Origin: Verrucomicrobiota bacterium
GTDB taxonomy: Bacteria; Verrucomicrobiota; Kiritimatiellia; JAHIZV01
Assembly: GCA_018814445.1 (NCBI GenBank)
Contig: JAHIZV010000139.1
Coordinates: 4,342-68,341 of the forward strand
Length of the DNA: 64,000 nt
Direction: 5' to 3'
The notes below the pieces were generated by a model. That model did no database searches. It was not told the origin of the DNA and saw only the letters and a program-made list of their open reading frames with translations. Both the position numbers and the translations under genes were made by a program. Every line of letters starts with the position of its first letter. Position 1 is the first letter of the stretch. This document shows, in pieces, positions 9,475-59,408 of the stretch.

Positions 9475-9491
9475 AGACGCCCTGCCCGTTT

Positions 9492-9526
9492 GGTGTTCGA
9501 TGTTCCATGTTCGATGTTCGATGTTC
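9492..9526. repeat. TTCGATG-family heptamer tandem repeat upstream of sufS
   Basis: gtgttcgatgttccatgttcgatgttcgatgttc. Confidence 0.8.
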
Positions 9527-9529
9527 TTC

Positions 9530-9856
9530 TCACGCTTTCACCAGAATCTTCTCGCCTTCGATTTTCACTTTGAACGTCGGGATCGGCTTTGTGGCCGGCA
9601 GACTCAACTGTTGACCGTTTCGAATATCAAAACGCGCGCCGTGAAACGGACAGGTCAACTCACATCCTGCCAGATCGCCGCTGATCAGAGACATTCGCTG
9701 ATGACTGCACCAGGCGCTCACTGCGTGAAACTGACCATCGACCTTGAAAAGCCCAATCTGCTTCTCTCCGCCCAGATCCACCAGCTTCCGATCCGTTTCC
9801 TCAAACTCGCCGACCGTGGCGACCTCATGCCACTCCTTGCTGTCAAACAGTCCCAT
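9530..9856 (-). CDS. Rieske [2Fe-2S] ferredoxin-like protein embedded in the suf operon
   Basis: CSH...CPFHG Rieske ligand pairs; 108 aa. Confidence 0.7.
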   Translation of the reverse strand: MGLFDSKEWHEVATVGEFEETDRKLVDLGGEKQIGLFKVDGQFHAVSAWCSHQRMSLISGDLAGCELTCPFHGARFDIRNGQQLSLPATKPIPTFKVKIEGEKILVKA

Positions 9857-9892
9857 CGTTATCTCCTGCTCCCTTTTTCCCTCGCTGCGAAG

Positions 9893-11200: not shown

Positions 11201-11228
11201 AACTCACAATCCAATCCACAATCCAAAA

Positions 11229-12677
11229 TCATCCGATGCTTCCCTCAAGTTTAATTTCCAGCAGTTTCGTGGCTTCGACCGCGAATTCCAGGGGAAGCTT
11301 CTTGAATACGTCCTTGCAGAACCCGTTGACCACGAGATTGATCGCGCTCTCTTCATCAATGCCGCGGCTCTTGATGTAGAACAGTTGATCCTCGCTGATC
11401 TTGGAAGTCGTGGCCTCGTGCTCGATAATCGCCGTGCTGTCTTCCGCTTCGATATACGGCACTGTATTCGCACTGCATTTGTCTCCGACCAACATGGAGT
11501 CGCAGATCGAGTAGTTTCTGCATCCCTTCGCACCCGGAACAACCTGAACAAGACCCCGATATGTATTAACGGACTCGTCACACGATATCCCTTTGGAGAC
11601 GATCGTACTCTTCGTGTTGTTGCCGACATGAATCATCTTCGTCCCGGTATCGGCCTGCATCCGGTTGTTGGTCACGGCCACGGAGTAGAATTCACCGGTG
11701 GAGCCGTCGCCCTCAAGGATACAGCTCGGGTACTTCCACGTGATCGCCGCACCCGCTTCCACCTGAGTCCAGGAGATTTTCGATTTCCTGCCCCGGCAGT
11801 GACCGCGCTTGGTCACAAAGTTGTAGATGCCGCCCCGGCCCTTTTCATCACCCGCGTACCAGTTCTGAATGGTCGCGTACTTGATCTCCGCGTTGTCCAT
11901 CGCGATCAATTCGACCACGGCGGCGTGCAGTTGGTTGGTGTCGCGCATCGGAGCCGTGCAGCCTTCGAGGTAGGACACGTAGGCGCCTTCGTCCGCGATA
12001 ATCAGCGTGCGCTCAAACTGCCCCGTGTCCTGCGCGTTAATACGAAAGTAGGTCGAGAGTTCAACCGGACATTTCACGCCCTTCGGAACGTAGACGAAGG
12101 ATCCATCCGTAAATACCGCAGAGTTCAGCGAGGCAAAGTAGTTGTCGGTGTGCGGGACTACCGCCCCCATGTACTTCTTGATCAGATCAGGATGCTTGAT
12201 AATCGCTTCTGAAATCGGACAGAAGATAATGCCCATCTCCTCGAGCATTTCCTGATGGGATGTAGCCACTGACACACTGTCAAAGACGGCATCGACAGCG
12301 ACACCCTCCAGGCGCTTCGCTTCACCGAGCGGAATGCCTAGTCGCTCAAAGGTCTTCGAAATCTCCGGGTCTATCTCCCCGTCTTCATTCTTGAAGCGGT
12401 CAATCATCTTCTTTGGAGCCGAGTAGTAGCGGATGTCCTGATAGTCGATCTCCGGATAGTCCAGCAACGCCCATCGCGGCTCTTTCCTTGTCGTCCACCA
12501 TCTGTACGCCTTCAAACGCCACTCAAGCATCCACTCCGGCTCATTCTTCTTGGCCGAAATAAAGCGAATGATATCTTCATTCAGCCCCTTCGGAGCCTCA
12601 TCAGCTTCGATGTCAGTAACGAAGCCGTACTTGTACTCGCCGGAGGCAAATGTCTCTTTTGTTTCAATTTCACTCAT
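11229..12677 (-). CDS. sufB: Fe-S cluster assembly protein SufB
   Basis: 482 aa, strong SufB-like sequence throughout. Confidence 0.9.
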
Positions 12678-12709
12678 ATACCTGACCTCTGACTTCTGCC
12701 TTCTCTCCC

Positions 12710-13498
12710 CTAACCAACCAGTACTTCATGGCCGAATTTCTCGCGCACCCAGTCGTAGCCCTTTTCCTCAAGTTCTTTGACCAGCTCACGGCCGCCCGTC
12801 ATGACGATCCTTCCATCGATCAGAATATGGATGTGGTCGGGGTGGATATAGCGGAGGATGCGCTCGTAATGGGTAATGACGAGGACGCTGAATTCAGGGC
12901 CGACCAGTCTGTTCACACCCTTCGAGACGACCTTGAGCGCATCGATATCCAGGCCGGAATCGGTCTCGTCCATGACGGCCAGGCCCGGCTTCAGCGTGAG
13001 CATCTGCAGGATCTCCATGCGTTTCTTCTCGCCACCCGAGAACCCGTCGTTCAGATAACGATTCACAAAGGTCTCATCCATCTCGAGGTACTTCATATTA
13101 TCGCGCAGTTCCTTAAGGAACTCGGTCGGCTTAACCTTCCCGCCTTCGCCGGCAATCGCATCAACCGCGCTTTTCAGAAACTTCGCGACGGTTACGCCCG
13201 GGATGGCCACGGGGTACTGAAAGGCCAGAAATAGCCCAAGGATCGCGCGCTCTTCGGGGTCCATTTCGAGGATATTCTCTCCCTTGAAGAAAATCTCACC
13301 CGCAGTCACTTCATAGGAGGGATGCCCCATAATCACACAGGCAAGAGTACTCTTGCCGGAACCGTTGGGTCCCATCAGCGCGTGCACTTCGCCCTTGTTG
13401 ATAGTCAGGTTCAAACCCTTAAGAATCAGCTTATCCTCCACGTTAGCGTGAAGGTTCTTGATCTGAAAATACGGCATCTCACTCATAGTTCTTCTCAT
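12710..13498 (-). CDS. sufC: Fe-S cluster assembly ATPase SufC
   Basis: Walker [13 protein letters not shown] signature and Walker B; precise start ambiguous (13498, 13486 or 13477). Confidence 0.9.
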
Positions 13499-13502
13499 TC
13501 AT

Positions 13503-13543
13503 TCGATGTTCATTGTTCGAAGTTCGATGTTCGATGTTCAAAG
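13503..13543. repeat. TTCGATG-family heptamer tandem repeat upstream of sufC
   Basis: ttcgatgttcattgttcgaagttcgatgttcgatgttcaaag. Confidence 0.8.
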
Positions 13544-13888
13544 ATCGAATCCAAGCTCCAACTTAGCTTCTTCAGACATCCGGTCCGGGCCCCAGGGGGG
13601 ATTCCAGATAACGTTCAAATTCACTGCCTTGATGCCCGGCTGTGTCTGCGCGGTCTGATCGACCTGGTACAGAAGCTGAGGACCATAGGGACAGCCCGGC
13701 GTCGTCAACGTCATATCGATATCCGCCGCGCCGTCTTTCACCCGCACATCATAGAGAAGTCCGAGATCCACAATGTTCATGTGCAGTTCGGGATCCAGAA
13801 CCGTCTTTAGAAGTTCACGTACAGCATCCTGCAGTTGTTCGTCTGTCAGCGTCTGCCCTTCCCCCTGTTCTTTCACTTCGTCCGTCAT
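13538..13888 (-). CDS. SufT/DUF59 (MIP18-family) Fe-S assembly protein
   Basis: 116 aa with a PGCP-containing DUF59 signature; located in the suf operon. Confidence 0.65.
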   Translation of the reverse strand: MTDEVKEQGEGQTLTDEQLQDAVRELLKTVLDPELHMNIVDLGLLYDVRVKDGAADIDMTLTTPGCPYGPQLLYQVDQTAQTQPGIKAVNLNVIWNPPWGPDRMSEEAKLELGFDL

Positions 13889-13916
13889 CTCCTCTTCCTC
13901 ACATTGGATCCCCCGG

Positions 13917-14345
13917 TCACCTGATCACCGGAGTGAGTCTTCTCTTCCCTCTGAACTGCCCGAGATTCATATTGTAGATGTAGGCAACAAGCTGGTCCTG
14001 CATCTGCGTGACAGGCTCCTTGATATTGCAGGTTCCATACTGCCGGCAGGCCTCAGGGTCTTCGCTGCAGGCCGCAATATGCACGGGACCGTCAATGGCC
14101 TCGATCACTTCGCCCAAGGTCATCTCATCCAGCTTCCGTGCGAGACGATATCCGCCGTGAGCCCCTGAGGTCGACTCCACGACCCCGCCTTTGGCAAGGC
14201 ACTGAAGCACTTTGCCGAGCAGTTCGCCTGGAATTCCGTATTGGTCGGACACCTCTTTGGCCGATGCCAGATTGCCCCGGCGCAGGCCGTCCATATGGAG
14301 GAGCGCCATCAGGCCATATTCAACTTTCTTGCTCAGTTTCAGCAT
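13917..14345 (-). CDS. Rrf2-family transcriptional regulator (IscR/SufR-like, three-Cys cluster ligand set)
   Basis: MLKLSKKVEYGL... HTH N-terminus; C-x5-C-x5-C (CSEDPEACRQYGTC); start at internal Met 14345, not ORF start 14534. Confidence 0.75.
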   Translation of the reverse strand: MLKLSKKVEYGLMALLHMDGLRRGNLASAKEVSDQYGIPGELLGKVLQCLAKGGVVESTSGAHGGYRLARKLDEMTLGEVIEAIDGPVHIAACSEDPEACRQYGTCNIKEPVTQMQDQLVAYIYNMNLGQFRGKRRLTPVIR

Positions 14346-14463
14346 CGCCCAGCCATCAGGGACCAAATAGGTCGCATTTACTTCCAAAAAAATAGACCGG
14401 TTCCCGATCTCTTGAGGCAATATAGCTTCCCCGTTGCGGCTGTCAAACGTTTGCGGCACGGAA

Positions 14464-15291
14464 TCAGCGGGACTCGGGCGGAGGTCCACGGTGCATATTC
14501 TCAAAGAAGGAGCGCATTGAAGTGACGTCGACAATGCCGTTCAGGTACTCAACAAACTGAACGGCTTCGTCTTCAGCGTAGCCGAAATCCAGACCTATCT
14601 CATAAAATTCCCGGTCCCGTTGCGCATCCAGCATGGGTGTCAGTTCCACGATGTTGTCCCGCATCTCGTGCATAAGTGGTCGCCGATCCTCCCGCGGGAT
14701 ATCGCCGCGAAGCTGTTCGGCAAGACTCCATGTGCGGTCGAGGAGCGTCAACATATGCTGATACTCCGCTGCTTCATCCTCGGACATGGACGACTTGTCC
14801 CGATCGAGAAAGTGAGCCGCTTTCTTAGCAAAACCTTCCCGCATGCGCTGCCTCGACTCTTCCCGCTGCTTCAGAATTTCCTGATAGCGCTCAGGGTCCT
14901 CCTCTTTGATTCGATCGAGCCAGTCGCGCCGGCTCTCCCAGCGGTTCGTGGAAACCAGCGTGATGTTCGTCTGAGACGCGCGCAGTGAATCAATACTGGC
15001 ATCGCGCTCGGAGATCACGTGCTCCAATTCGAGTATCTGATCCCGCAACTCAGCGATCAGTTCGGCATCCCCCTGATCAGACCGATTCGACTGATCAGTC
15101 GGATCAGTCGGCGCCAACATCACGGGAGTCGCCACTTGCTCGGCTCTATAAAGTTCCAACTCTCCGCGGCGAAATCGCTCTTCTTCGGCGACTCGCTTGA
15201 AGTGGTAGGCCGCGGTGGAAGCCGCGCCCAGCAGAAGCAACATCGTGAGCTCCACCACCCAATACGCTTTCACAGATCTCTTCATATGCAC
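14464..15291 (-). CDS. Hypothetical membrane-anchored coiled-coil protein
   Basis: N-terminal TM helix followed by a charged, E/R/D-rich coiled-coil-like sequence; no recognised domain. Confidence 0.4.
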   Translation of the reverse strand: MHMKRSVKAYWVVELTMLLLLGAASTAAYHFKRVAEEERFRRGELELYRAEQVATPVMLAPTDPTDQSNRSDQGDAELIAELRDQILELEHVISERDASIDSLRASQTNITLVSTNRWESRRDWLDRIKEEDPERYQEILKQREESRQRMREGFAKKAAHFLDRDKSSMSEDEAAEYQHMLTLLDRTWSLAEQLRGDIPREDRRPLMHEMRDNIVELTPMLDAQRDREFYEIGLDFGYAEDEAVQFVEYLNGIVDVTSMRSFFENMHRGPPPESR

Positions 15292-15353
15292 TCCCCGTTA
15301 CACTCTTCACAGCGTCTTGCCGACCGAAGACTGACCGCCCCACAGGAACTGTG

Positions 15354-16289
15354 CTACATCCTCTCACTGCACGACGCGCCGTAGGCGAAGCAGGAGAAGC
15401 AGCGATGATGTTTCATCATAATGCGGGCCTTCATGGCATCACTCAATGTGCTCCCGAGATCGTAGTCCGCATCATCGTCAACCAGCGTGCAGGCATAGAC
15501 CCGCATTTCTCCGTCTTTCTTCAGGACGAACTTGGTATAGTCGCACATGAAGCCGGAGCGGCTCTTCTCGGTGTGATACGTCGTCATACAGTTCTCGGTG
15601 ATCTCCGGCACGTCGGGTGTCTCTCCCGGCGTCAGAAATTCCGGAAAGCTGACGATATTGATGTCGGTCGGAACGCCGATCTCATCGAGGAACGGAGCGA
15701 ACTGCCGGTCAATCGCCTCTGCGTCTTCATCCTTCGCCCGCTGACGCGCAATCGAAACAGGAAAACCGTAGACATGAAGTCTGCGCAGGGCGTCCAGCGA
15801 CTGCCGGAACGTTCCCGGGCCCCTTCCCTGCTCGTGCTTCGTCTCATCGGGATAGTCTATGCTGACGCGAAATTTCAGCGGATGCGGCTTCTCAAGCAGA
15901 GGCAATACTTCTTCCATTCTATTCAGAAGAGGCTCGGTGCCGTTGGTAAGGACAAGACACGGGCAGTGATCCAATGCGCGGTCCAGGATTCTGACAAACT
16001 CAGGAATCACGAAGGGTTCACCGCCTGTGAACGAGAACTGCTCCACGCCCATCGACATCGCCTCGTCTATGAAAGGCTTCGCGTCATCGAACGTGATTGG
16101 GTTGATCCGGTTGTCGCCCGGTTTTGATCCTTCGAGACAGAACGGACAACGAAGATTGCAGGTTGTCCCCGTATGAAACCACAGTTCGGTCAGCTTCTCA
16201 GGCAGAATATACCCCCTGGCTTCCCCCCGTGAGGTCAGAAGCCAGTCGCTCTCTGCCTTTGAACGTTGAACGTTGAACTTCGAACTCAT
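15354..16289 (-). CDS. Radical SAM protein with C-terminal Cys-rich region (possibly ArsS/TIGR04167-like)
   Basis: CNLRCPFC (Cx3Cx2C) plus C-terminal CxxC...C cluster; start placed at ATG 16289 forming an ATGA overlap with the upstream stop. Confidence 0.65.
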   Translation of the reverse strand: MSSKFNVQRSKAESDWLLTSRGEARGYILPEKLTELWFHTGTTCNLRCPFCLEGSKPGDNRINPITFDDAKPFIDEAMSMGVEQFSFTGGEPFVIPEFVRILDRALDHCPCLVLTNGTEPLLNRMEEVLPLLEKPHPLKFRVSIDYPDETKHEQGRGPGTFRQSLDALRRLHVYGFPVSIARQRAKDEDAEAIDRQFAPFLDEIGVPTDINIVSFPEFLTPGETPDVPEITENCMTTYHTEKSRSGFMCDYTKFVLKKDGEMRVYACTLVDDDADYDLGSTLSDAMKARIMMKHHRCFSCFAYGASCSERM

Positions 16290-16957
16290 GCGCTGTACGA
16301 CGCGTTGAAAAAGCACTCTCTGTGAATCCGGGTTATGACCACTCCCTTTGCTTCAAGCCAGCGCGACACTTCATCAATCATGCTGTCGAGGCCGCACAGG
16401 TAGTAGTTGATATCATCGGCAACCGGCAGATCTTCGAGCAGACCCGTGACCCTTCCATGGAAGTAGTCGGGATGATCCTCCCGCGAAACAGCCAGGCGTA
16501 GGTCGCAGCGACCAGCGAGATAAGCCCTCTCGCACGCGTCATCCAACTTACGTACACCGTGGAGGCACTGGATAGGAGTGCGCGCGGGATCAGAGCGGAA
16601 GAACGAAAGAAACGGCGCAATCCCTGTGCCCGTGGCCACGAATACGAAGCGGTCGCCGTGTACCGGCGCTCCCGGTCGGAACCAGCCGAAAGGCGGACTG
16701 ATCTGAACCGTGTCCCCCGGTTTTCTGTCAGCGAGATACGGAGAGACTATGCCGCCTTCCATGCGGCGGATCAGAAAGCGCAGGACCTTTTCATCGGTGC
16801 CGGAGGCTATGCTGTAAGGTCTGGACGTCTTTCCATCCGCGCTGAAAAGAGCAAGACAGTCGCCCGGCACAAAAGAAATCCCGTTACGTTCGAGATCGAG
16901 CTCAAAGATCTGGTCCGAAAGCCAACGTCTTTCGCAAACTGTAAGAGATGCATTCAT
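16286..16957 (-). CDS. FNR-like FAD/NAD(P)-binding oxidoreductase (ferredoxin/flavodoxin reductase family)
   Basis: RPYSIAS FAD-binding motif and GTGIAP NAD-binding motif; 223 aa. Confidence 0.7.
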   Translation of the reverse strand: MNASLTVCERRWLSDQIFELDLERNGISFVPGDCLALFSADGKTSRPYSIASGTDEKVLRFLIRRMEGGIVSPYLADRKPGDTVQISPPFGWFRPGAPVHGDRFVFVATGTGIAPFLSFFRSDPARTPIQCLHGVRKLDDACERAYLAGRCDLRLAVSREDHPDYFHGRVTGLLEDLPVADDINYYLCGLDSMIDEVSRWLEAKGVVITRIHRECFFNASYSA

Positions 16958-17155
16958 TGATAAAGGGTAGTCGAGAGTTGTAGCTCTATCTTACTATTCA
17001 TATGCAGCGAGCGTCATCGGGAGGAGCAACTTGTCATCCATAGCTTGCAGAGCGACGGAGGAAGCGATGCGGCGATCCAGGGGAGAACGTCTGGATTGCC
17101 ACGCTCCGCCATTCGGCGAAGCTCGCGATGACAGCGTCTGGCCTGTTTCGGTAGT

Positions 17156-18172
17156 CTAAAAGAAATCGTCCCGGTGCTCCTCTCCTTCAAACTCACCCAG
17201 GTAGCGTACCTCACGCTTAAGCTCAAGATCGAACCTGTCCTTCACGGCATGTGCCATCTGTTCGACAAGATCCCTGACATCCTGCGCGGTACACCCTTCG
17301 CCCTTAACGACGATATTGGCGTGCTTCTCGAACACGCGGGCGCCGCCGACTCGCATGTCCAGTGCACCGGCCTCCTCCAGAAACCAGCCTGCCGCCTGTC
17401 GCCGTCCTGCCGCTGAGGTCGGTTCGATGTTCCGGAATATACTGCCGATACACGGGTCTACCGAGAGATCGGGGTGCTTCTCAGCCCTGATCTTCAGAAT
17501 GCGCGCGCGTTCCTCCATCTGCTTCGCGCGATCACCGTTTCCCGATGAGAAACATGCGGAAATGATCGTTTCGCCTGACTGCTGAATGTCCGAGCGCCGA
17601 TACGCGAATCCCAGCGTGGAGGCGTCTGCTTCGCGGACCGCTCCCGTTTCATCCATCAGCGTCACTGACTGCAACACATCGGCAATCTGTTCGCCCCATG
17701 CTCCCGCGTTTCCGGCAATCGCGCCGCCAACAGTTCCCGGGATGCCGGTACAGCTCATCAACCCGGAAATGCCCTCCCGGGCAGTGAACTCCGCGAGCTT
17801 GTCGAGCGGTGAGCAGGCCGTGACTTCGAAGAAATGATCCTCCCGCTCAATCGACAGCCGGTCAGAAACAAATCGAACAACGACACCGTCGTATCCGGCA
17901 TCCGAGACAAGAACGTTGGAACCGCCGCCAAGGATAACAAACTTCACGCCGGTCGTTGTCAGACTGCCGACTGTCCGGATAAGTTCATCAGGGGCACTGC
18001 ACGATATGAGACAGCGGCACGGACCACCCAGCTTGAAAGTCGTGTAACCGCTGAGCGGCGCGTTCTCGCGAATGTCTATGCCGGGGAGCAACTCTGAGAA
18101 ATCAGCCATATCGTGTTCACAAACCGCCATGCACCGGCTCACATGAAGTTCGCCCTCCAGAGATTCAGTCAT
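17156..18172 (-). CDS. murB: UDP-N-acetylenolpyruvoylglucosamine reductase MurB
   Basis: FAD-binding TFKLGGP...GGGSNVL motifs; N-terminal start uncertain. Confidence 0.8.
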   Translation of the reverse strand: MTESLEGELHVSRCMAVCEHDMADFSELLPGIDIRENAPLSGYTTFKLGGPCRCLISCSAPDELIRTVGSLTTTGVKFVILGGGSNVLVSDAGYDGVVVRFVSDRLSIEREDHFFEVTACSPLDKLAEFTAREGISGLMSCTGIPGTVGGAIAGNAGAWGEQIADVLQSVTLMDETGAVREADASTLGFAYRRSDIQQSGETIISACFSSGNGDRAKQMEERARILKIRAEKHPDLSVDPCIGSIFRNIEPTSAAGRRQAAGWFLEEAGALDMRVGGARVFEKHANIVVKGEGCTAQDVRDLVEQMAHAVKDRFDLELKREVRYLGEFEGEEHRDDFF

Positions 18173-18713
18173 CTTTCAGAAATGTTTTTGAATCTTCCTC
18201 CAGCCTCGCAAGAAGCCACAGGTAGTCCGAGAGGCGATTCATCCAGACCAGCAGATGCTGATTGCCGACAAGCCCCCCCTCGACAAGCTTAACGACCTTC
18301 CGCTCGCATCTTCGCGCCACGGTCCGTGCGTGATCAATATGCGCGGCGGCAACGGTACCCCCGGGAATGACAAAGCCCGAAGGCATGGCAACCACGGCCT
18401 CAATCGCCTCCCGCCTGCTTTCCAGAAGCCCTAGCATTTCCTCGTCCACCCGGTTCTCCAGCCGTCCGACATGTTCCTCGCCCGTGGCCAGCTCCGCCGC
18501 CACGATAAACAGATCCCGCTGAATCTCCAGAAGGGCTCCCGCGACCTCTTCGTTTCGACAAAGATTGCGGGCGACACCGAGTATGCTGTTCAGCTCGTCG
18601 ATATCTCCGTATGCATCCGTTCGCGGAGAATCTTTTGAGACAAACTCTCCGGAAAAGAGCTGAGTCTGACCTTTGTCACCGGTCTTCGTCGTAATGCTGG
18701 GCTTCTTCTCCAT
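18165..18713 (-). CDS. PduO-type ATP:cob(I)alamin adenosyltransferase
   Basis: TKTGDKGQT...DAYGDIDELNS motifs; 182 aa. Confidence 0.8.
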   Translation of the reverse strand: MEKKPSITTKTGDKGQTQLFSGEFVSKDSPRTDAYGDIDELNSILGVARNLCRNEEVAGALLEIQRDLFIVAAELATGEEHVGRLENRVDEEMLGLLESRREAIEAVVAMPSGFVIPGGTVAAAHIDHARTVARRCERKVVKLVEGGLVGNQHLLVWMNRLSDYLWLLARLEEDSKTFLKDD

Positions 18714-18764
18714 AGGACCTTAGATTCCGCCAAAGCACACGGGATGTCAACGGATACGGAAGGA

Positions 18765-18837
18765 GTTCAAAGTCCTCAGTTCAAGGTTCAAAGAGTCTCT
18801 ATGCCTCCTTTGAACTATAAACTTTGAACTTTGAACC
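18765..18837. repeat. Inverted GTTCAAA/TTTGAAC heptamer arrays in the divergent PduO/suhB promoter region
   Basis: gttcaaagtcctcagttcaaggttcaaag...ctttgaactataaactttgaactttgaacc. Confidence 0.8.
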
Positions 18838-18860
18838 TTAAGCACTAGGCTCTGAGAATC

Positions 18861-19652
18861 ATGTCTGATCCTTCTTACACAGACTACCTCGAGACAGCGA
18901 TCGCTGCCGCCCGCGCCGGCGGAGAGCACGCGTATGCCAATCAGTATCGCCGCAACGAGGTGGACGAACAGTTCGCGCATGACGTGAAACTGGTCCTGGA
19001 CCGCGAGACGCAGGCGGTCGTGGAGAAGGTCCTTCGCGACAGGTATCCGGAACACGCGATCCTGGGTGAAGAAGGCGGCGAGGCGGACGATTCGCGTCCG
19101 ACGTGGATCGTGGATCCCATCGACGGCACCGTTAACTACTTTCACGGCATGCCGATCTGGTGCTGTTCCGTCGCGATACAGGTGGACCGACGTATCGTAG
19201 CCGGAGCCGTCTATGTCCCTCCTCTGAACGAACTCTATACGGCAACGACAGATGGGCCGGCCCTTCTGAACGGCGAACCCATCGGGCCGTCCAAAGTCGC
19301 CTCACTCGCGGAGGGCATGGTGGCTACGGGTCTTTCTAAAAACGTGAGTGCCGGAGGGGTTATCGACCGGCTTACACGGCTCTCCCTGTCGGCTCAGAAG
19401 GTACGAATCATGGGTGCAGCCGCTGTCGATATCTGTCACGTCGCCTGCGGACGGGCGGATGGATATATCGACTCGGGCATCTACATCTGGGACGTCGCGG
19501 CCGCAGGACTGATCGCAGAACGCGCAGGCGCACAGGTGGAGATCATCGAATACATCGACGATATGCAGTTCCGGTATCTCTGCTCAAACGGGCTGATTCA
19601 CGATGATTTGAAGAAGATCATCACAGATCAGTATCAAGAGCCCGAAGACTGA
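18861..19652 (+). CDS. Inositol monophosphatase family protein (SuhB-like)
   Basis: WIVDPIDGT metal-binding motif and the IMPase fold signature. Confidence 0.8.
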   Translation: MSDPSYTDYLETAIAAARAGGEHAYANQYRRNEVDEQFAHDVKLVLDRETQAVVEKVLRDRYPEHAILGEEGGEADDSRPTWIVDPIDGTVNYFHGMPIWCCSVAIQVDRRIVAGAVYVPPLNELYTATTDGPALLNGEPIGPSKVASLAEGMVATGLSKNVSAGGVIDRLTRLSLSAQKVRIMGAAAVDICHVACGRADGYIDSGIYIWDVAAAGLIAERAGAQVEIIEYIDDMQFRYLCSNGLIHDDLKKIITDQYQEPED

Positions 19653-20019
19653 CCGTCACGCGAACGGAAGGCCGTTCTTTCATCGAGACCGTCACAACGT
19701 CCCACGCAACCGTCTCGCGGCCCACCTTCACAAATCCTTCTTCGCTGTCGACGTCCCACTCCCCGGCGGCGTCACCATCTTCCAGACCCAACTGCCGGCT
19801 GGTGAATGTCGATTGCGCACCAAGCGCCGCCTCTTGAAACAGCTGAGCCTGTCTCTCCGCGGTAAGCGAGCGTATGAGCGATGTGCCTACAACAGTTGCC
19901 AGCACACCGACAATCAGAAGGGCGACGAGCACCTCAATGAAGGAGAATCCGTTCTCTTTGAACTTTGAACTGAGAACTTTAAACTTAGGAATCCCCACTG
20001 GAAATATCCGCCGCATCAT
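19621..20019 (-). CDS. Minor pseudopilin (prepilin-type N-terminal cleavage/methylation domain)
   Basis: G|FSFIEVLVALLIVGVLA prepilin signature; leader overlaps the 3' end of the upstream pseudopilin gene; start codon uncertain. Confidence 0.55.
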   Translation of the reverse strand: MMRRIFPVGIPKFKVLSSKFKENGFSFIEVLVALLIVGVLATVVGTSLIRSLTAERQAQLFQEAALGAQSTFTSRQLGLEDGDAAGEWDVDSEEGFVKVGRETVAWDVVTVSMKERPSVRVTVSLRALDTDL

Positions 20020-20458
20020 CCACTCCGCCGGGTTCGCCGTCGCTTCCGTAGCTGATAATCTCATAAGGCAGGTTATCTCTCCCCGGAACCAGGTAGATGT
20101 ACGGCCGCCCCCACGGATCGAGGGGCACATCCCTGCTTTCGAGATACCCTTCGTCCGGATAGTTGCGGGGAACCGGCGCGGTCGCGGGCTCCCTGACCAG
20201 CGCATCAAGTCCCTGCTGTTGAGTCGGAACGAAACCGTTCTCCGTGCGATAGACCTGGATCGCAGTCTGCAGATTCTTGATCTGCACTTTCGCGGCAGTG
20301 ATCCGCGCTTCGGCAGGCTTCCGCAATACGTTGCCCCCCACAATCCCCGCCAAGACCGCGATGATGACGAGAGCGACGAGAATCTCAATCAACGTGAAGC
20401 CCTGCCTGCGATCGCCTCGATGTCCGATGTTCGATGTTCGATGTTCGATGTTTTCCAT
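19985..20458 (-). CDS. GspG-like major pseudopilin (type II secretion/type IV pilus-like)
   Basis: G|FTLIEILVALVIIAVLA plus DPWGRPY GspG motif; ATG 20458 with GGAGG SD (GTG 20464 would overlap the polB stop); the 20-aa leader is encoded by the AACATCG x3 repeat. Confidence 0.7.
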   Translation of the reverse strand: MENIEHRTSNIGHRGDRRQGFTLIEILVALVIIAVLAGIVGGNVLRKPAEARITAAKVQIKNLQTAIQVYRTENGFVPTQQQGLDALVREPATAPVPRNYPDEGYLESRDVPLDPWGRPYIYLVPGRDNLPYEIISYGSDGEPGGVDDAADISSGDS

Positions 20459-20460
20459 CC

Positions 20461-22713
20461 TCACCCTCCGAGTCCCAACTCCTGCTGAGCAGTCTCATTT
20501 TCAATAGTCGCAAACTTCTTGTACAGCGCCTCGAGCTTCGCCACATAGTAGGGAACATTCTCATCCCTGTTGTCCGGATCCCATTCTGCCACGGATCTGG
20601 CCGCTTCGTAAACAGCGACGCTCTTCTTCGCACCCGTCACGTAGTACGATATCTGATCCCCCGCCTGGTAAGCCCGTCCCGAATTCAAGGCCAGCTCGTA
20701 TGCCGCGTTGCGGCCCCGGCTCTTGCCCTTGATCTTCTCCGCGTACGTGGCGGGGGCGTCCTGGAGTGTCTCGGTCTTGGCGAGCATCTGAATCGGCCAG
20801 GTCTTCTCCTCGATGCACTTTCTATACTGATCGTGCAGTTCACCGATCCGCTCGTTGTTCCGCTCGAGCTTCAATCTTAACATCTCCCGCAAAAACTCCC
20901 GCTGGAATCTCTCCAGGCCGCGGGACTTGAGGGCCGCACCCTTGATGATTACCTCATCATGCTCGTCAAGAAGTGCATAGTTCTTCATCTTGTAGCTGAA
21001 CATCGCCTTGTACTCGGCATCAAATTCGATATCGATGCCCTCAGGCAATGAGGCCTCAAAGTCGGCTCTGAACTTCTTCAGCTCCTTATCTGACTTGAAG
21101 GGCGGCGGAACGAAGTAGATACCGTCGGTGTCGATCTCGATGGTCTTCGCGCCATTGCCGTCGAGCCACTTGATCATCTGCTTCAGAAGCTGTCTTCCCT
21201 CGTAGGCCACTTTCTCGGCGGAAGAGAAATCGCTGAAGCGCGCCTGACGAAAACCCAGGTAACCGTAAAACGAATTGATCAGGATCTTAAACGTGCTCTG
21301 AAGCGCGTCAAGGTAGACCTTCTCGTCAGCGTTCTTTGTGTTCTGCATTTTCGTCTTCGCGTCGATCCTGAACGAACGCAAGTAGTCGAGCAACTCGAGG
21401 AATATCCTCAATTCGTCTGTCCTGGGGCACAACTGCTGAGTCAGCATCAGGGATGGATACAGCGAGCGAACGTCACAATGATGAACATTCTCCTCAACGC
21501 CGACGACAAACACGTCGGTGTATCCCCCGGCGAACTCCCGCGGTATATCCGGATACGGGATAGCCTCATCCCGCCGGACGTATTCACGGAGCAGAAGAGA
21601 GTCAATCTTCGCTCCGTTGCCCCTGACGCTGACATTCTGATACGAGAAAGGAAGAATCTGGGCCTGCGCGAAGTAGATCGGGGACAGGATGTTGCTGATT
21701 TCACGCGTCTCGATGATGTCATCACAGGCGTAGTCCATGAGCGTTGAGGGATCCTTATCGAACATGGACGCAATCTCCGCTCCCTCGATGTACGTCCTTC
21801 CTTCGGGAGCAACGCCGAAGTGGATAGCGACTTCTTTCAGTCCAAATCCCTCAAGCGCACGGTTGGTGATATCGTAAAGCTGGACCAGGAAAAGCGTGTC
21901 GATGACGTGCCGGCCGAATATGTCGAACTTCGGATACGTGATGGACCGCTCCCCTGCGATAAAACGGCCGGGACGGCTCTTAATCGTGCTTCCGTCCCTG
22001 CCAAGCGTCATCTTCACTTTGTGACGCTTCGCGCGCGTCGCGATGAACGGCAGATCGAATCTGAAAATGTTGTGTCCCTCGATAACGTCAGGATCTTTCT
22101 CCTTCACTATCTCGACGAACTTCTGCAGAAGCGCCTTCTCGTCGAGTTCCGCCCCTGAGAGCACTTCCGTCCATCCCGTCTCGTCCGCCAGGGCAATCGC
22201 GATGATCCTGTCCTCTTCACGTTCGGCGTTGGGGAACTCATAGCCTTTCGTCGTGTAGGTCTCGATATCGACCTGGAGCCGTTTGAGTTCTCCGAACTTC
22301 AATCCCTTGAACAGCGTTCTGCCAGTGAGCAGTAGGTACTGTTGGACCGGATCGGTGAGGTAGTAATAGGGAGCTTCTCCTGAAGAGGGATTCTGGCCCG
22401 TTTTCCTTCGCAGGAACTTAACCGCGTCCTGGCAATCCTTCCACGAATCGAACTCGGCCCGGTATTTGAAGGCCCCCTTCCCTGACAGGTCGTGAATCCC
22501 GTGTCGTATTTCCGAATCAGACAGCAGATCCGGGCTGACCAACCAGATGAACGGCTTGAAGGGCTCCTTCTCCTGTGTGAGTGCGTTGCCGGCGCGAACG
22601 AACCGGGTGATCTCATCGGCGGCGTCCTTGTTCCTCGTCAACTCAACGGCAACAAGACCTTCACCGGGATGGTGACCGAAGATGAGGCGGTTGTCAGACG
22701 GGTCCTTGATCAT
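20461..22713 (-). CDS. Family B DNA polymerase (Pol II-like) with 3'-5' exonuclease domain
   Basis: Exo I DIETY; motif A DVRSLYPS; motif B KILINSFYGYLG; motif C IDTDGIY; 750 aa. Confidence 0.8.
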   Translation of the reverse strand: MIKDPSDNRLIFGHHPGEGLVAVELTRNKDAADEITRFVRAGNALTQEKEPFKPFIWLVSPDLLSDSEIRHGIHDLSGKGAFKYRAEFDSWKDCQDAVKFLRRKTGQNPSSGEAPYYYLTDPVQQYLLLTGRTLFKGLKFGELKRLQVDIETYTTKGYEFPNAEREEDRIIAIALADETGWTEVLSGAELDEKALLQKFVEIVKEKDPDVIEGHNIFRFDLPFIATRAKRHKVKMTLGRDGSTIKSRPGRFIAGERSITYPKFDIFGRHVIDTLFLVQLYDITNRALEGFGLKEVAIHFGVAPEGRTYIEGAEIASMFDKDPSTLMDYACDDIIETREISNILSPIYFAQAQILPFSYQNVSVRGNGAKIDSLLLREYVRRDEAIPYPDIPREFAGGYTDVFVVGVEENVHHCDVRSLYPSLMLTQQLCPRTDELRIFLELLDYLRSFRIDAKTKMQNTKNADEKVYLDALQSTFKILINSFYGYLGFRQARFSDFSSAEKVAYEGRQLLKQMIKWLDGNGAKTIEIDTDGIYFVPPPFKSDKELKKFRADFEASLPEGIDIEFDAEYKAMFSYKMKNYALLDEHDEVIIKGAALKSRGLERFQREFLREMLRLKLERNNERIGELHDQYRKCIEEKTWPIQMLAKTETLQDAPATYAEKIKGKSRGRNAAYELALNSGRAYQAGDQISYYVTGAKKSVAVYEAARSVAEWDPDNRDENVPYYVAKLEALYKKFATIENETAQQELGLGG

Positions 22714-32793: not shown

Positions 32794-32922
32794 AAGAAGG
32801 TTTTGGGTGTTCGGTGTTCGGTGTTCGGTTGAGATAACTGCTTATTCAACCATCCCCCATCAACCATCAACTATGGGTGGTTCTGTCGGGCGGCAATCCA
32901 TGGGTGGCGAATTGGGGGGAGT

Positions 32923-33652: not shown

Positions 33653-33655
33653 AAG

Positions 33656-33749
33656 AAACATCGAACATCGAACACCAAACATCAAACAGCGAACAGCGAA
33701 CGTTTTCCGGATTCGGAATTCGATGTTCGATGTTCAGAGTTCGATGTTC
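33656..33749. repeat. Inverted pair of heptamer tandem arrays (AACATCG x3... / ...TTCGATG x3) between ybaB and recR
   Basis: Read directly from the sequence. Confidence 0.8.
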
Positions 33750-36293: not shown

Positions 36294-36409
36294 GTTCAAA
36301 GTCTAAAGTTCAACGTTCAAAGCCTTTCAAAGTTCGATGTTTGATGTTCGGTGTTCTGCGGTGCCTTTTTCCTCGCATCGGGCACCCGGTATCTGGTATC
36401 CGGTATCGG
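36294..36409. repeat. Composite heptamer arrays (GTTCAAA, TTCGATG, then GGTATCN x3) ending 3 nt before the surE start
   Basis: Read directly from the sequence. Confidence 0.8.
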
Positions 36410-39311: not shown

Positions 39312-40130
39312 TCAGCTTCCCGAGAGTTCTTTGGATCTGTGTTCCGCTGCTTTAACGGCGTTGACGATGGCCTCTCCGACTCCGCTCTTCTCAAATACGG
39401 CCACGGCGGCGGCCGTGGTCCCGCCTTTCGACGTGACACGGGCCCTCAAATCCTCGGCACTCGATCCCGATTCGCTCATCAGCTTCGCGGCCCCCTGGAC
39501 AGTAGCCAGAACAAGGCCCCTGGCCGTGTCAGCGTCCATGCCTAATTCATCAGCGGCCTTGAGCATGTGCTCGATCAGGTAGAACACATAGGCCGGGCCG
39601 CTTCCGCTCAGCGCAGTGACGGCATCCATCGCATCCTCGTCAACTCGCACGACGATACCGACAGAGCCGAGCAGCTTCTCCGCGACGGCCAGGTCGTCAT
39701 CTGTCGCACGCGAGCCGGACGCTATAGCCGCCGCGCCGAGCCCGACGAGCGCAGGCGTATTCGGCATGACGCGAACAAGACGAATCCTGTCGCCAAGAGC
39801 CGATTCAAAGACCGTGCTTCGCAGTCCTGCGGCAATACTGATCACAAGTGTTTTCTCGCCGATCGCGCCGCGAAGTTCATCAAGGACCTCGGTCATGACC
39901 TGCGGCTTGACGGCCAGCACAACGATATCCTTCCCATCGACTGCTTTGCGATTGTCTGTCTCCGTCCCGACGCCGAATTTTTCACGGAAGATCGCCAGAC
40001 GGGCTTCCGCGATATCCGTAACAACAATATTGGCCGCGGGGCATACGCCTTTGCTGACGATGCCGCTGACGAGCGCCTCCGCCATGTTGCCCGCGCCGAT
40101 GAAGCAGATGGTTGATGGTTGATGGTTCAT
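39312..40130 (-). CDS. proC: Pyrroline-5-carboxylate reductase ProC
   Basis: ICFIGAGNMAEAL Rossmann N-terminus and P5CR fold; codons 2-8 are encoded by an AACCATC x3 repeat. Confidence 0.85.
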   Translation of the reverse strand: MNHQPSTICFIGAGNMAEALVSGIVSKGVCPAANIVVTDIAEARLAIFREKFGVGTETDNRKAVDGKDIVVLAVKPQVMTEVLDELRGAIGEKTLVISIAAGLRSTVFESALGDRIRLVRVMPNTPALVGLGAAAIASGSRATDDDLAVAEKLLGSVGIVVRVDEDAMDAVTALSGSGPAYVFYLIEHMLKAADELGMDADTARGLVLATVQGAAKLMSESGSSAEDLRARVTSKGGTTAAAVAVFEKSGVGEAIVNAVKAAEHRSKELSGS

Positions 40131-40165
40131 GGTTCAGATTCCGGGTTTCGGGTTTCGGGTTTCAG
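40107..40165. repeat. Heptamer arrays spanning the proC start: GGGTTTC x3 upstream and GGTTGAT x3 inside the first codons
   Basis: Read directly from the sequence. Confidence 0.8.
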
Positions 40166-55693: not shown

Positions 55694-55736
55694 GCCAACT
55701 CATTTCCGAGTTTCGAATGCTGATTTTCGATGGGGG

Positions 55737-56297
55737 ATGTTTGTGTCCGGGAACCACAGACCGAAATTCAGGAATCGAAATTCGAAAATCGTTTTCTCCT
55801 GGCCCGATCCCCCTCTGAACGTTGTCCTTGTCGAACCTGAGATCCCCCCCAACACGGGCAACATCGCGCGGCTGTGCGCGGCGACGGGCTCGACACTTCA
55901 CCTCGTAGGACCTCTTGGTTTCCGCCTGACCGATCGCGCGCTCAAACGGGCCGGTCTGGATTACTGGAAGTCTGTCACCATCGTCCGTCACAAGGATCTG
56001 CAGGAGTTCCTGCCCGCGATCACCGGCCGGCGGTTTCATCTCCTCAGCACGTCAGGGGAGACCTGCTACACAGAAGCATCATTCGCCCCAGGGGACTTTC
56101 TCATCTTCGGAAGTGAGACAAGGGGTCTGCCCGGAGACTTTCTGGAAGCATATAGAGAACGCGTTCTCGGCGTCCCCATGATCACCAGTAGTGTCCGGTC
56201 CCTGAACTTGGCAACAACTGCCGGGATCGTGCTGTACGAAGCTCTTCGGCAAGCGGGAAGGCCCGCCTCTCCTCCGATGGTTGATGGCGCGTCCTGA
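55737..56297 (+). CDS. trmL: tRNA (cytidine/uridine-2'-O)-methyltransferase TrmL (SpoU/TrmH family)
   Basis: EPEIPPNTGNIARLCAATGSTLHLVGPLGF SPOUT motifs; the ATG lies inside an inverted heptamer-repeat structure, so the start is uncertain. Confidence 0.75.
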   Translation: MFVSGNHRPKFRNRNSKIVFSWPDPPLNVVLVEPEIPPNTGNIARLCAATGSTLHLVGPLGFRLTDRALKRAGLDYWKSVTIVRHKDLQEFLPAITGRRFHLLSTSGETCYTEASFAPGDFLIFGSETRGLPGDFLEAYRERVLGVPMITSSVRSLNLATTAGIVLYEALRQAGRPASPPMVDGAS

Positions 56298-57448: not shown

Positions 57449-57489
57449 AGTCAGACACTCAGGTCTCAGGTCTCAGGTTTCAGGTTTCC
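57449..57489. repeat. CAGGTCT/CAGGTTT heptamer array ending 3 nt before the DUF58 start
   Basis: ctcaggtctcaggtctcaggtttcaggtttcc. Confidence 0.8.
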
Positions 57490-57492
57490 CAT

Positions 57493-58377
57493 ATGATTCC
57501 AAAGGAAATCATACGCAAGGTTCGGCACATCCAGATCCGGACACGTCACATGGTCAATGACGTGTTTGCGGGCCAGTATCACAGTGTGTTCAAGGGACAG
57601 GGCATCGAATTCGAAGAGGTGCGCGAGTACGTTCCGGGGGACGATATTCGTTCTATTGACTGGAACGTGACCGCCCGCATGGGGCATCCCTATATCAAGA
57701 AATTCGTCGAAGAACGTGAAATGACGGTCATGCTTCTTGTGGACATCAGTGCTTCAAATGTTTTCGGGAGCACTCAACAGCTTAAGAAGGACCTCGCGGC
57801 GGAAATTGCCGCTGTGCTGGCTTTCTCCGCCATCCGGAACAACGACCGCGTCGGATTGATTCTTTTCACCGACGAAGTGGAACGCTACGTTCCCCCGCAG
57901 AAGGGCGTCCGACACGTCCTGCGTGTCATTCGGGAAGTTCTTCACTTTGAACCCAGGCAGAAGAAAACGCGGGTCGTCCCGACGCTTGATTTTCTGAATC
58001 ACGTCGCCACGCGCAAAGCAGTCACGTTTCTCATCAGCGATTTTCTTTTCCCCGAAGACTATAAGCGGGCATTGACTGTAACCGCGAAACGCCACGACCT
58101 CGTCGGCGTCATTGTCAGGGATAAACGCGAACAGGCATGGCCGAAGGTCGGGCTTGTGGACTGGGAAGACGCGGAGTCGGGTCGGCGATATCTCGTGGAT
58201 TCAAGCGACGCGTCCGTAAGGCGCGCCCTGGCGAGAATGGAAGAGGCGAAAATGGAGAGGACGCGCGAGATTCTCCGGAGCTCAGGCTGCGACCGGATTG
58301 AAGTGTTCGCAGGCGAGTACTACGAAAAGGAATTCATCAAGTTCTTCCGCATGAGAGAGCGGAGGTTGAGGGTATGA
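57493..58377 (+). CDS. DUF58 (vWA-like) protein, MoxR partner
   Basis: Conserved DUF58 core; follows moxR. Confidence 0.8.
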   Translation: MIPKEIIRKVRHIQIRTRHMVNDVFAGQYHSVFKGQGIEFEEVREYVPGDDIRSIDWNVTARMGHPYIKKFVEEREMTVMLLVDISASNVFGSTQQLKKDLAAEIAAVLAFSAIRNNDRVGLILFTDEVERYVPPQKGVRHVLRVIREVLHFEPRQKKTRVVPTLDFLNHVATRKAVTFLISDFLFPEDYKRALTVTAKRHDLVGVIVRDKREQAWPKVGLVDWEDAESGRRYLVDSSDASVRRALARMEEAKMERTREILRSSGCDRIEVFAGEYYEKEFIKFFRMRERRLRV

Positions 58378-59408
58378 AGACGTGTGGAAGTGTGAAAGTG
58401 CGTGAGTATGGAAGTGGACCGACCCCCACACCCCCGTACTCCCACACCCCCATACTGCTTCTTTGCCTGACACTTCTTGTTTCCGCCTGCTCGCAAACCA
58501 ACGCTCCCTCAGGTGCGAGCCAACATGTGACCGCCTCCCTCAGCACGAATACCATTCACATCGGCGATGAAGTAATCGCCACACTGTCAGTGATTCATCC
58601 GGCAGGCACACACGTTCAACTGGATGAGCCCGGACGGGGTAAGGCCATCATCGTCCGCGACAGAAAATGGGATTCCTCCGAGCTGAATCCAACACAACTG
58701 ATTTCGCGCGCGACCTACACGCTCACCTCTCTGGAGATCGGCGATCACAGTGTGTCCACGGGCAGAGTCCAGATTGTGAGCGAAGAGGGGGATGCCGTTT
58801 CGGCGCCTTATCCCGATATTCAACTGCATGTCGTAAGTGCGCTGGAATCAGAAGACACCCAGCCGCACGACATCAAAGACCTGGCCGTCTGGCCCCGACG
58901 TTTTCCCCGCTGGATCGGCGTTCTCATCGGCATCGCACTGGCCGCCCTTGCGATTGCTTTGCTGGTTGGCCGCTTTCTCTCAAAACCCCGCACGATTATT
59001 CACGAACCTCCACCCATTCCGGCTCACGAGAAGGCGCTCCGCGCATTGATGCTTCTGAAGGAGAAGGGATGGATCGAGGCTTTGAACATAGAACCCTTCT
59101 ATGTTGCCCTCTCAGATGTCGTTCGCCATTACATCGAAGACCGGTTTCGTCTTCACGCACCCGAGCGGACGACGGAGGAGTTTATCCGCGAAGCGGCGGC
59201 CAACTCTGATCTCAATACAGATCACCGAATGCTGGTGTCCGACTTCCTGACCCAGTCCGACCTGGTTAAGTTCGCAAAGTACCAACCGGAACAGCGCGAC
59301 ATGCAATCAGCCTTCGACTCAGCAGAGCGCCTGATACACGAAACCACCTCTTCTGTACCCCCAGACTCCCACACTCCCACACACGGGGAAAGGGGGCGGC
59401 AAACATGA
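58374..59408 (+). CDS. Bat-operon membrane protein (DUF4381-like); N-terminal region encoded by octamer/heptamer repeats
   Basis: Lipobox-like LVSAC, central TM helix; position between DUF58 and BatA. Confidence 0.5.
   Translation: MKTCGSVKVREYGSGPTPTPPYSHTPILLLCLTLLVSACSQTNAPSGASQHVTASLSTNTIHIGDEVIATLSVIHPAGTHVQLDEPGRGKAIIVRDRKWDSSELNPTQLISRATYTLTSLEIGDHSVSTGRVQIVSEEGDAVSAPYPDIQLHVVSALESEDTQPHDIKDLAVWPRRFPRWIGVLIGIALAALAIALLVGRFLSKPRTIIHEPPPIPAHEKALRALMLLKEKGWIEALNIEPFYVALSDVVRHYIEDRFRLHAPERTTEEFIREAAANSDLNTDHRMLVSDFLTQSDLVKFAKYQPEQRDMQSAFDSAERLIHETTSSVPPDSHTPTHGERGRQT

Follow-up and report, generated by a model that had tools for sequence, protein, structure and literature searches.

Short tandem repeats, mostly of seven nucleotides, sit at the gene boundaries of a 64-kb stretch of Verrucomicrobiota DNA, and in six genes they lie after the start codon or include it. 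The stretch, called the window here, is 64,000 nucleotides of contig JAHIZV010000139.1 (assembly GCA_018814445.1), part of a metagenome-assembled genome (MAG) of the class Kiritimatiellia. The six genes encode a radical SAM protein, ProC, GspG, a GspH-family pseudopilin, TrmL and a predicted lipoprotein. Judged from gene layout and protein homology, the repeats inside these genes are very probably translated, as a prepilin leader, as the n-region of a signal peptide or as a short N-terminal tail. The reading that we prefer, at a probability of about 0.6, is that the arrays are simple repeats grown by slippage, tolerated at unconstrained gene boundaries and translated where no spacer separates one gene from the next. 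Slippage is their most likely origin, and they probably serve no required function.

With our own run detector (score of at least 9), 18 tandem arrays of period 7 are observed in the window against 0.2 in Markov shuffles; Tandem Repeats Finder (TRF) gives about 25. Among the periods tested (4 to 16), the sole other clear excess is at 14, which is twice 7 (10 arrays against 0 in shuffles), and periods 6, 8, 15 and 16 yield 2 to 4 arrays each. The units stand head to tail in runs longer than chance, as in long simple sequence repeats, and these arrays are a further case of the heptanucleotide class found in cyanobacteria, Beggiatoaceae and Xanthomonas. The window has a G+C content of about 56% and is annotated by NCBI (proteins MBU0678290-337, locus tags KJ626_). 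Its radical SAM protein has its nearest matches in Kiritimatiellia MAG proteins, at 70-76% identity; no relative above 76% amino-acid identity turned up in genome and metagenome scans, and in an exact-sequence cluster look-up of the window proteins every 90% protein cluster is a singleton. A second assembly of the organism exists. An independent Logan assembly of SRR2540949 reproduces window positions 12984-20447 (7,464 bp, four arrays included) at 100% identity and with identical array lengths, and its contig terminates within the gspG array.

Placement was scored for 20 arrays on a curated gene map of the window. Non-coding DNA makes up 9.3% of the window and holds 76% of the array bases, the enrichment that characterizes long simple sequence repeats. 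The coding remainder comes to 134 bases: 115 within the first 42 nt of four open reading frames (ORFs), 4 that overlap stop codons, and 15 in a single trivial two-copy repeat, the only gene-internal array. Most arrays are close to a start codon: 15 of the 20 fall in the interval from -53 to +42 around one, and eight arrays stop 3-17 nt short of a start.

Arrays in the first codons of six genes

An earlier reading of the letters alone (the sequence-only reading) had listed five sites at which repeats run into coding N-termini. All five are present where it placed them, and an array in the GspH-family gene adds a sixth. Its general claim stands for these six genes and fails at surE and recR, where the arrays are 5' untranslated region (5'UTR). 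For all six, the NCBI annotation uses the same starts as ours, and starting at any canonical codon further downstream would cost the protein conserved parts. A spacer is missing at four of the six junctions: two of these four are ATGA overlaps, one is a 14-nt overlap and one has a gap of 2 nt. It is because of these two features, the lack of a usable downstream start and of a spacer, that the repeats are judged very probably translated.

The radical SAM gene (15354..16289, minus strand; 311 aa, MBU0678296.1) begins with an ATG at 16289 that overlaps the stop of an FNR-like oxidoreductase gene (16286..16957, minus strand) as ATGA, leaving no spacer. The same overlap occurs in a related genome, L004 (…ECFFNESYSA-stop / ATGA). 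The array AGTTCGA AGTTCAA CGTTCAA CGTTCAA AG (16257..16286, minus strand; period 7, 4.3 copies by TRF) covers +3 to +32 from the ATG and provides codons 2-11. The sense strand reads ATG AGT TCG AAG TTC AAC GTT CAA CGT TCA AAG, or MSSKFNVQRSK, and the derivation of SSKFNVQRSK from GTTCAAC-type repeats is borne out. The alignment of orthologue N-termini that had been suggested as a check was run: homology to the radical SAM orthologues starts at residue 14-16 (DWL), with no further canonical start before that, and the TrmL extension described below is matched in 119 homologues. The repeat-encoded FNVQR (window 16230-16290) aligns with FHIQR, YHITR and HHITR in L004, L030 and other orthologues. 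The radical SAM array may have grown from ancestral codons rather than by insertion, or the alignment may be a coincidence.

In proC (39312..40130, minus strand; 272 aa) the start codon itself is part of the repeat. The array AACCATG + AACCATC x3 (40107..40134, minus strand; 4.0 copies, 95% matches by TRF) includes the ATG, in its variant unit AACCATG, and codons 2-8, and encodes MNHQPSTI; the proposed origin of NHQPSTI from three AACCATC units holds. A second, untranslated array, GAAACCC x3 (40142..40163, minus strand), lies directly upstream. The frame is closed by a TGA two codons before the ATG, and no ATG, GTG or TTG occurs from the start to ICFIGAGNMA. The Pfam Rossmann-type domain begins at residue 7, and in alignments with solved structures of bacterial ProC, residue 5-8 falls opposite residue 3-4.

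The gspG gene (19985..20458, minus strand; 157 aa) encodes a protein with the sequence …RRQG|FTLIEILVAL and Pfam matches to PF07963 and PF08334, by which its N-terminus is classed as the leader of a type IV prepilin-like protein, a pseudopilin of the type II secretion system. The array GAACATC x5 (20417..20452, minus strand) encodes residues 2-14 of the 20-residue leader (ENIEHRTSNIGHR). The sequence-only reading was right that this leader is repeat-encoded; it had counted three copies of AACATCG at 20418-20452, and there are 5.1. No ATG, GTG or TTG occurs from the array to the G|FTLIE cleavage site. Among 110 homologues, leader length ranges from 4 to 34 with a mode of 11. Ahead of the ATG come a GGAGG, at a distance of 6 nt, and the polB stop, at 2 nt. 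The DNA polymerase II gene polB (20456-22713, minus strand) has the gspG ribosome-binding site within its last codons; a repair polymerase beside a type II secretion pseudopilin operon is an odd pairing.

The next gene, for a GspH-family pseudopilin (19621..19998, minus strand; 125 aa), opens with a GTG and shares its first 14 nt with the end of gspG. This GTG is its sole start: from the array to the G|F cleavage site there is no ATG, GTG or TTG. An array of the AGTTCAA family (19956..19986, minus strand) gives the leader …KFKVLSSKFKENG|FSFIE.

TrmL (55737..56297, plus strand; 186 aa) carries its repeat within an N-terminal extension that is conserved in relatives. An imperfect array, CGAAATT x4.3 (55762..55791, plus strand), encodes PKFRNRNSKI. 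Across the 119 homologues the extension has the consensus …HRRR..LPFxWPxPP and a modal length of 21 residues. The window extension, MFVSGNHRPKFRNRNSKIVFSWPDPP, has 28 residues before the conserved hydrophobic strand and keeps the H-R and F-x-W-P-D-P-P anchors, with the array in place of the basic middle segment; the SpoU domain starts at residue 27. As had been noted, the ATG at 55737 lies between two repeat arms, the upstream one being TTTCGAATGCTGATTTTCGATG (55706..55729, plus strand). Pairing of the arms is no better than in shuffles (-29.5 kcal/mol, z = -0.8), and the idea that the ATG sits in a meaningful loop was dropped. The TrmL C-terminus is also reached by repeats, two GATGGTT units (56271-56287) encoding …PPMVDG.

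The sixth gene (58374..59408, plus strand; 344 aa, hypothetical) overlaps the preceding DUF58 gene as ATGA, an overlap common to its orthologues, and has GGAGG/GAGGG upstream of its ATG. A G-rich arm of period 8 and a C-rich arm of period 8/16 (58382..58456, plus strand) form a hairpin and encode residues 4-28, KTCGSVKVREYGSGPTPTPPYSHTP, the n-region of the predicted signal peptide. By inspection, rather than by a dedicated predictor, ILLLCLTLLVSAC fits a lipoprotein signal peptide (n-region, hydrophobic core, lipobox [LVI][ASTVI][GAS]C), with VSAC as the lipobox. No canonical start occurs from codon 9 to this core. Homologues share the signal-peptide layout, with n-regions of 0-67 residues. 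The repeats that the sequence-only reading had placed at 58382-58455 are real; they are octameric, arranged as a G-rich/C-rich inverted repeat, rather than heptameric, and the DUF4381 (PF14316) label is weak, as the protein matches no Pfam family at E <= 0.01. A precomputed PF14316 match exists for 1 of 119 homologues. At the other end of the gene, the octamer array CTCCCACA (59357..59382, plus strand) lies 22 nt before the overlapping batA ATG, and its units encode part of the C-terminal tail, …PPDSHTPTH. The octamer family TCTCCCAC / GGGAGA recurs at 37170-37205, 41362-41418, 58422-58456 and 59357-59382.

Reading frame limits which repeats can lie inside a gene and how they can change. All five in-frame heptamer units are stop-free in the sense orientation, and three of them (GTTCAAC, AACCATC and AGTTCAA) would read TGA in the opposite one. 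Since 7 is not a multiple of 3, only steps of three units alter the peptide and leave the rest of the protein intact. Simulated slips of one or two units truncate the radical SAM, ProC, GspG and GspH-family proteins after 15-83 residues, and slips of three units keep the frame. Loss of three units turns the ProC N-terminus into the canonical MCFIGAGNMA and shortens the GspG leader to 13 residues, near the homologue mode. The proposal that changes in repeat number alter N-terminal peptides is thereby confined to three-unit steps; smaller ones shift the frame. Neither the cluster look-ups nor the Logan assembly showed a copy-number variant.

Untranslated arrays, repeat units and relatives

Most other arrays fill the spacers before genes. 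Two arrays upstream of surE (36326..36407, plus strand) end 5 nt before its ATG (36412), and inverted arrays in the ybaB-recR spacer (33657..33735, minus strand) end 5 nt before the recR ATG (33652). Both sets are untranslated: the longest ORF crosses them, but the true starts, MRILLSNDDG for surE and MDSLERLIKALGRLPGIG for recR, are downstream. An intercistronic array, CTCAGGT x4.4 (57458..57488, plus strand), ends 5 nt before the DUF58 ATG. The suf operon (8206-13888, minus strand; sufS, sufD, sufB, sufC and an Fe-S assembly protein) has four junction arrays between 9488 and 13549 (9488-9526, 11212-11230, 12682-12704 and 13502-13549), with the units GAACATC, GGATTGT, AGAAGTC and GAACATC. Arrays make up most of these four junctions and of the MoxR/DUF58, ybaB/recR and YbaB-upstream spacers. 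Others are away from any start: at 32799-32871 beside tRNA-Asn, at 37315-37338 between convergent genes, and on the flanks of the signal recognition particle (SRP) RNA gene. This last gene (35980-36261, minus strand) has a G-rich/C-rich octamer inverted repeat, of the TCTCCCAC / GGGAGA family, on one side and GTTCAAA/GTTCGAT heptamers on the other (35883-35952, 36293-36356).

A few unit families recur at many loci within this single 64-kb window. The pattern GTTCRAN fits 11 of the 20 arrays, as GTTCGAT at seven loci and as GTTCAAA or GTTCAAC at four. Outside this family, the units include AACCATC, GAAACCC, CTCAGGT and AAGTCAG, along with C/G-rich octamers; each heptamer array has 3-6 units. 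The start-proximal arrays share no common sense-strand motif, because the TTCGAA core is palindromic and GTTCRAN occurs in both orientations relative to the downstream gene. Two readings of GTTCRAN were considered and set aside. It resembles the tRNA T-loop, but there is no stem context and no Rfam support, and the resemblance was taken as a coincidence; a LexA-type site (TGTTC-N4-GAACA in Verrucomicrobia) does not fit the 7-bp direct spacing. ARAGORN calls a 'tRNA-???' with a 4-nt anticodon at 37256-37349, overlapping a GTTCGAT array, and the T-loop-like unit probably causes this false call. Rfam finds only SRP RNA and three tRNAs in the window, with no match at any array, and no feature in a promoter and terminator scan coincides with the arrays.

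Folding separates direct from inverted arrays. For the direct arrays of radical SAM, gspG and proC, folding is no stronger than in shuffles (z about 0). The inverted arrays of the ybaB-recR spacer reach -49.4 kcal/mol (z = -8.4), the lipoprotein 5' coding region -47 kcal/mol (z = -4.2), and the equivalent region of a relative, L053, -64.9 kcal/mol (z = -4.7). Nearly all of the ybaB-recR spacer (33645-33750, minus strand) is one 96-nt hairpin. About 8 nt separate the end of this hairpin from the recR ATG, UUUCUU follows it, and a role in attenuation or in coupling is conceivable.

Arrays recur at the same junctions in relatives, with other units. In L050, whose GspG is 63% identical, (GGTTTCA)x4 lies in the GspG leader and (CTCGTAT)x2-3 in the next, GspH-like leader. 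In L049 (radical SAM 75% identical), (CCAAAGT)x4.5 occupies the FNR/radical SAM junction, with two further units near the likely start. The syntenic TrmL-MoxR-DUF58-lipoprotein-BatA region of L052 (GCA_012103575.1) has the ATGA overlap followed by (GGTTCAA)x5.7, which encodes MKGFGVQGSRFKVQG ahead of the lipoprotein hydrophobic core, and L053 has (AGTCCAA)x5 with an inverted partner at the matching position. Repeats encode other parts of the lipoproteins as well. In L058 (1060-1100), (ATTCTTC)2(ATTCTTA)2 encodes the hydrophobic core of the signal peptide, ILHSSFLIL. In L060 (1310-1351), (AACCATC)n at the C-terminus encodes SHQPSTINHSP, and its last unit provides the ATGA overlap with batA; this lipoprotein tail has both the unit and its peptide in common with the N-terminus of the window ProC.

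Homologues were also scanned for stretches of 9 residues compatible with translation of a perfect heptamer array (at most 1 mismatch). Such peptides occur in 19 of 120 lipoprotein homologues, at 18 of 4,800 N-terminal windows, 9 of 3,600 C-terminal windows and 8 of 31,093 interior ones, and most of the 8 interior matches fall in N- or C-terminal extensions of the longer homologues. The scan flagged 2 of 120 GspG proteins and one TrmL homologue, the latter in its interior and none at the N-terminus. Presence is patchy overall: about 1 in 12 relatives has an array at the FNR/radical SAM junction, L051 GspG has none, most relatives lack them, and array density varies widely between their loci.

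Further arrays were seen outside these junctions. A TPR protein of L052 has a long n-region encoded by inverted arrays (11830-11911); a polyketide synthase of L004 has (GGTCNAA)4 in a ketosynthase-acyltransferase (KS-AT) linker (18822-18851); and an Acidobacteriota MAG (L023, 1958-2098) has inverted (AAGTTCA)4/(AACTTTG)4 between two co-directional genes, AAGTTCA being the dominant unit of the window and here found in another phylum.

Origin of the arrays and alternative explanations

On the reading that we prefer, heptamer arrays would grow in place by replication slippage and would persist only in unconstrained sequence. Such sequence is found mainly in the short spacers between genes, where an array usually stops a few bases short of the next start codon. 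If the spacer is missing, freedom to vary would be confined to the first codons of the downstream ORF or the last ones of the upstream ORF. At the FNR-like/radical SAM, polB/gspG, gspG/gspH and DUF58/lipoprotein junctions, the array would come to lie in the first codons of the downstream gene. Inside coding sequence it would be tolerated where the segment is removed (prepilin leader, lipoprotein n-region) or forms a short unstructured tail (ProC, radical SAM, TrmL), and only a stop-free orientation with a frame-keeping net length would survive. Adjacent units are often of the same variant (CGTTCAA twice; AACAGCG twice; CTCAGGT three times, then TTCAGGT). This pattern would be expected of stepwise slippage and lends it indirect support. 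If the arrays are merely tolerated, they make a tidy case of where a genome can afford junk.

Several observations pull the other way. The arrays are closer to the downstream start than to the upstream stop. A Shine-Dalgarno (SD)-like motif precedes about 45% of window starts and is mostly missing where an array abuts the start (sufD, recR, surE, DUF58, proC and polB). A start-biased position with few SD motifs is what a translation-related role would predict. One unit recurs at unlinked loci (GTTCGAT at 7), and units are common to other genomes (AACCATC, GTTCAAG and GTCCAAA in Kiritimatiellia relatives, AAGTTCA in the Acidobacteriota MAG), which slippage from random local seeds does not predict. 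Inverted array pairs form very stable hairpins. Translation itself, finally, is deduced from the DNA.

These points feed an account that we consider possible, if unlikely: the arrays could be functional start-adjacent elements, acting as RNA- or DNA-binding sites, as spacers for unstructured initiation or as coupling hairpins, and be translated as a side effect. In its favour are the crowding around starts, the shortage of SD-like motifs before array-preceded genes and a unit set common to several genomes, and in distant relatives the arrays at the N-termini of GspG, GspH and the lipoprotein keep their position while their sequence has changed. On the sense strand, the units inside coding sequence contain little G, and their folding does not exceed that of shuffles. 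Hairpins start just past the lipoprotein ATG in both the window and L053, and hairpins after overlapped starts could tie reinitiation to the upstream ribosome. Similar roles have been proposed in Beggiatoaceae (PMC4679880), and reporter effects are described in Nostoc (bioRxiv 10.1101/2022.06.06.494920). Against this account, the start-adjacent arrays have no common sense-strand motif and GTTCRAN occurs in both orientations; arrays also lie 3' of genes, between convergent genes or beside RNA genes; most relatives do without them at the same junctions; and no candidate binding factor was identified.

A broader version, which we hold just as tentatively, extends this to the class. Throughout Kiritimatiellia, arrays from a shared unit set would be maintained at cistron junctions, tuning or coupling initiation and repeatedly supplying new coding sequence. 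On this view, repeats would have built and rebuilt prepilin leaders, n-regions, C-terminal tails and even hydrophobic cores, such as ILHSSFLIL (ATTCTTC) and GLWTLGFGL (GGACTTT). The repeats would then be a lineage-wide route from simple sequence to targeting peptides, not passive clutter.

It is improbable that the arrays inside coding sequence are contingency (phase-variation) switches, in which a slip of one or two units turns the gene off and the reverse slip turns it on. Period 7 is out of frame, the simulated slips truncate all four proteins tested, and the Logan contig breaks inside the gspG array. An out-of-frame unit in the 5' end of an ORF is also the arrangement of contingency loci in pathogens such as Haemophilus influenzae (PMC2651432, PMC12721329); the tracts here differ in being short, in involving housekeeping genes and in belonging to an environmental organism. 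By gene function, three of the six genes fit a surface or host-interaction role, since GspG, the GspH-family protein and the lipoprotein are envelope or secretion proteins, but ProC, TrmL and the radical SAM enzyme are unlike phase-varying genes. The arrays have just 3-5 units, shorter than typical contingency tracts. A break by a k=31 assembler at a 35-nt repeat is expected anyway. The 5.7-unit array of a relative is the same in four assemblies, a weak argument as the flanks are also 100% identical (clonal).

Even less probable is that the start codons are mis-called and that initiation occurs downstream at non-canonical codons, which would make the arrays 5'UTR. The sequence-only reading had offered this as one of two outcomes. 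The surE and recR ORFs show that such errors arise, an in-frame CTG at 55815 in TrmL falls precisely at the onset of the SpoU domain, and ATA and CTG codons lie just upstream of the lipoprotein hydrophobic core. However, a later start would remove the Rossmann strand of ProC and the leader and cleavage site of GspG and the GspH-family protein, and a CTG start in the radical SAM gene would lose the conserved D-W. Relatives keep the H-R…F-x-W-P-D-P-P motif of the TrmL extension, and orthologous lipoprotein genes stay open from the ATGA overlap through arrays of their own. With the conserved overlaps and the NCBI starts added, downstream non-ATG starts are rejected for the six genes.

That the arrays are artefacts of assembling a short-read MAG contig, which can collapse or expand repeats, is highly improbable, as every array is at most 45 nt, below read length, the independent Logan contig agrees, each in-coding array keeps its reading frame, and like arrays occur in unrelated assemblies.

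Comparison with known heptamer repeats and other elements

Among the long simple repeats of bacteria, heptamers are reported to be the most frequent, with slippage as their proposed origin, according to Mrazek 2007 as summarised in PMC4679880 and PMC4692102. As those two papers present the class, the window arrays resemble it in having 7-nt tandem units beyond chance, intergenic enrichment and a patchy phylogeny. They differ in taxon (Kiritimatiellia-like, within the Planctomycetes-Verrucomicrobia-Chlamydiae (PVC) group), and in the GTTCRAN family, neither of which is described in the papers searched, and in their sizeable translated share. Literature searches brought up no paper on heptamer repeats in Verrucomicrobia, Kiritimatiellaeota or the PVC group.

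The closest parallel in position is the TAACTGA repeat of marine Beggiatoaceae, some cyanobacteria and Bacteroidetes, present in 2-6 copies, mostly a few nucleotides before starts at which SD motifs are rare (PMC4679880, MacGregor 2015). It precedes unrelated genes, essential ones included, and a minority of copies overlap ORFs, only at the periphery (PMC4679880). The window arrays are start-proximal in the same way, as are those of cyanobacteria, lying just upstream of starts with SD motifs rare, and they are similar in copy number, in having no functional theme and in a unit common to distant lineages. The unit itself is not TAACTGA but GTTCRAN, AACCATC and others; ACTGATC at 50781-50797 and CACTGAA in L002 come nearest. 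Forward TAACTGA repeats have stops in all frames, whereas several units here are stop-free and form leaders, signal-peptide segments and tails at orthologous junctions.

In Nostoc, several heptamer families (STRR; GGGGAYT, TTTTGAA and GACYAAT are examples) lie near starts, four of them overlap the start codon, and reporter effects are modest (bioRxiv 10.1101/2022.06.06.494920; PMC4692102). Cyanobacterial genomes likewise hold many families, near starts or promoters and in inverted pairs, and TTCAAAA resembles GTTCAAA. Their arrays, unlike those in the window, can run to tens of copies, and no leader-peptide translation is described there. Xanthomonas has about 180 GGGAATC arrays per genome, mostly of four units and intergenic (PMC4692102). 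As in the window and its relatives, position is kept between species, length and sequence vary, and inverted arrangements occur; GGGAATC is G-rich and quadruplex-forming, whereas the units here are not G-tracts, save for the separate G/C-rich octamers. What is new is that stop-free units at overlapped junctions very probably become N-terminal targeting peptides by translation, regularly and across a class.

Heptamers have raised questions of origin and role ever since their discovery in cyanobacteria, and arrays bound to a reading frame in essential genes, with different units at the same junctions, make these questions testable. For annotation in this lineage, the longest ORF can mislead (surE, recR), and a strange-looking N-terminus made of repeats may be genuine (proC, gspG, trmL). 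The arrays should be considered when starts are called and signal peptides predicted.

Two other kinds of repeat were observed in the window. A Gln-rich CAG/CAA tract (61898-62086; periods 3, 15 and 18) inside an ORF of the bat operon (61407-62240) is low-complexity coding sequence of another kind than the heptamers. The second is a dispersed element that consists of (CCATCAA)n and then CCATGGGYGGYTCT…GGG and is found at 27820-27870, 32846-32900 and 37238-37275. Its 17-nt core has three matches with at most 3 mismatches, against 0.24 expected, and the similarity extends past the repeat. Every copy ends in ATG, possibly the start of a tiny ORF.

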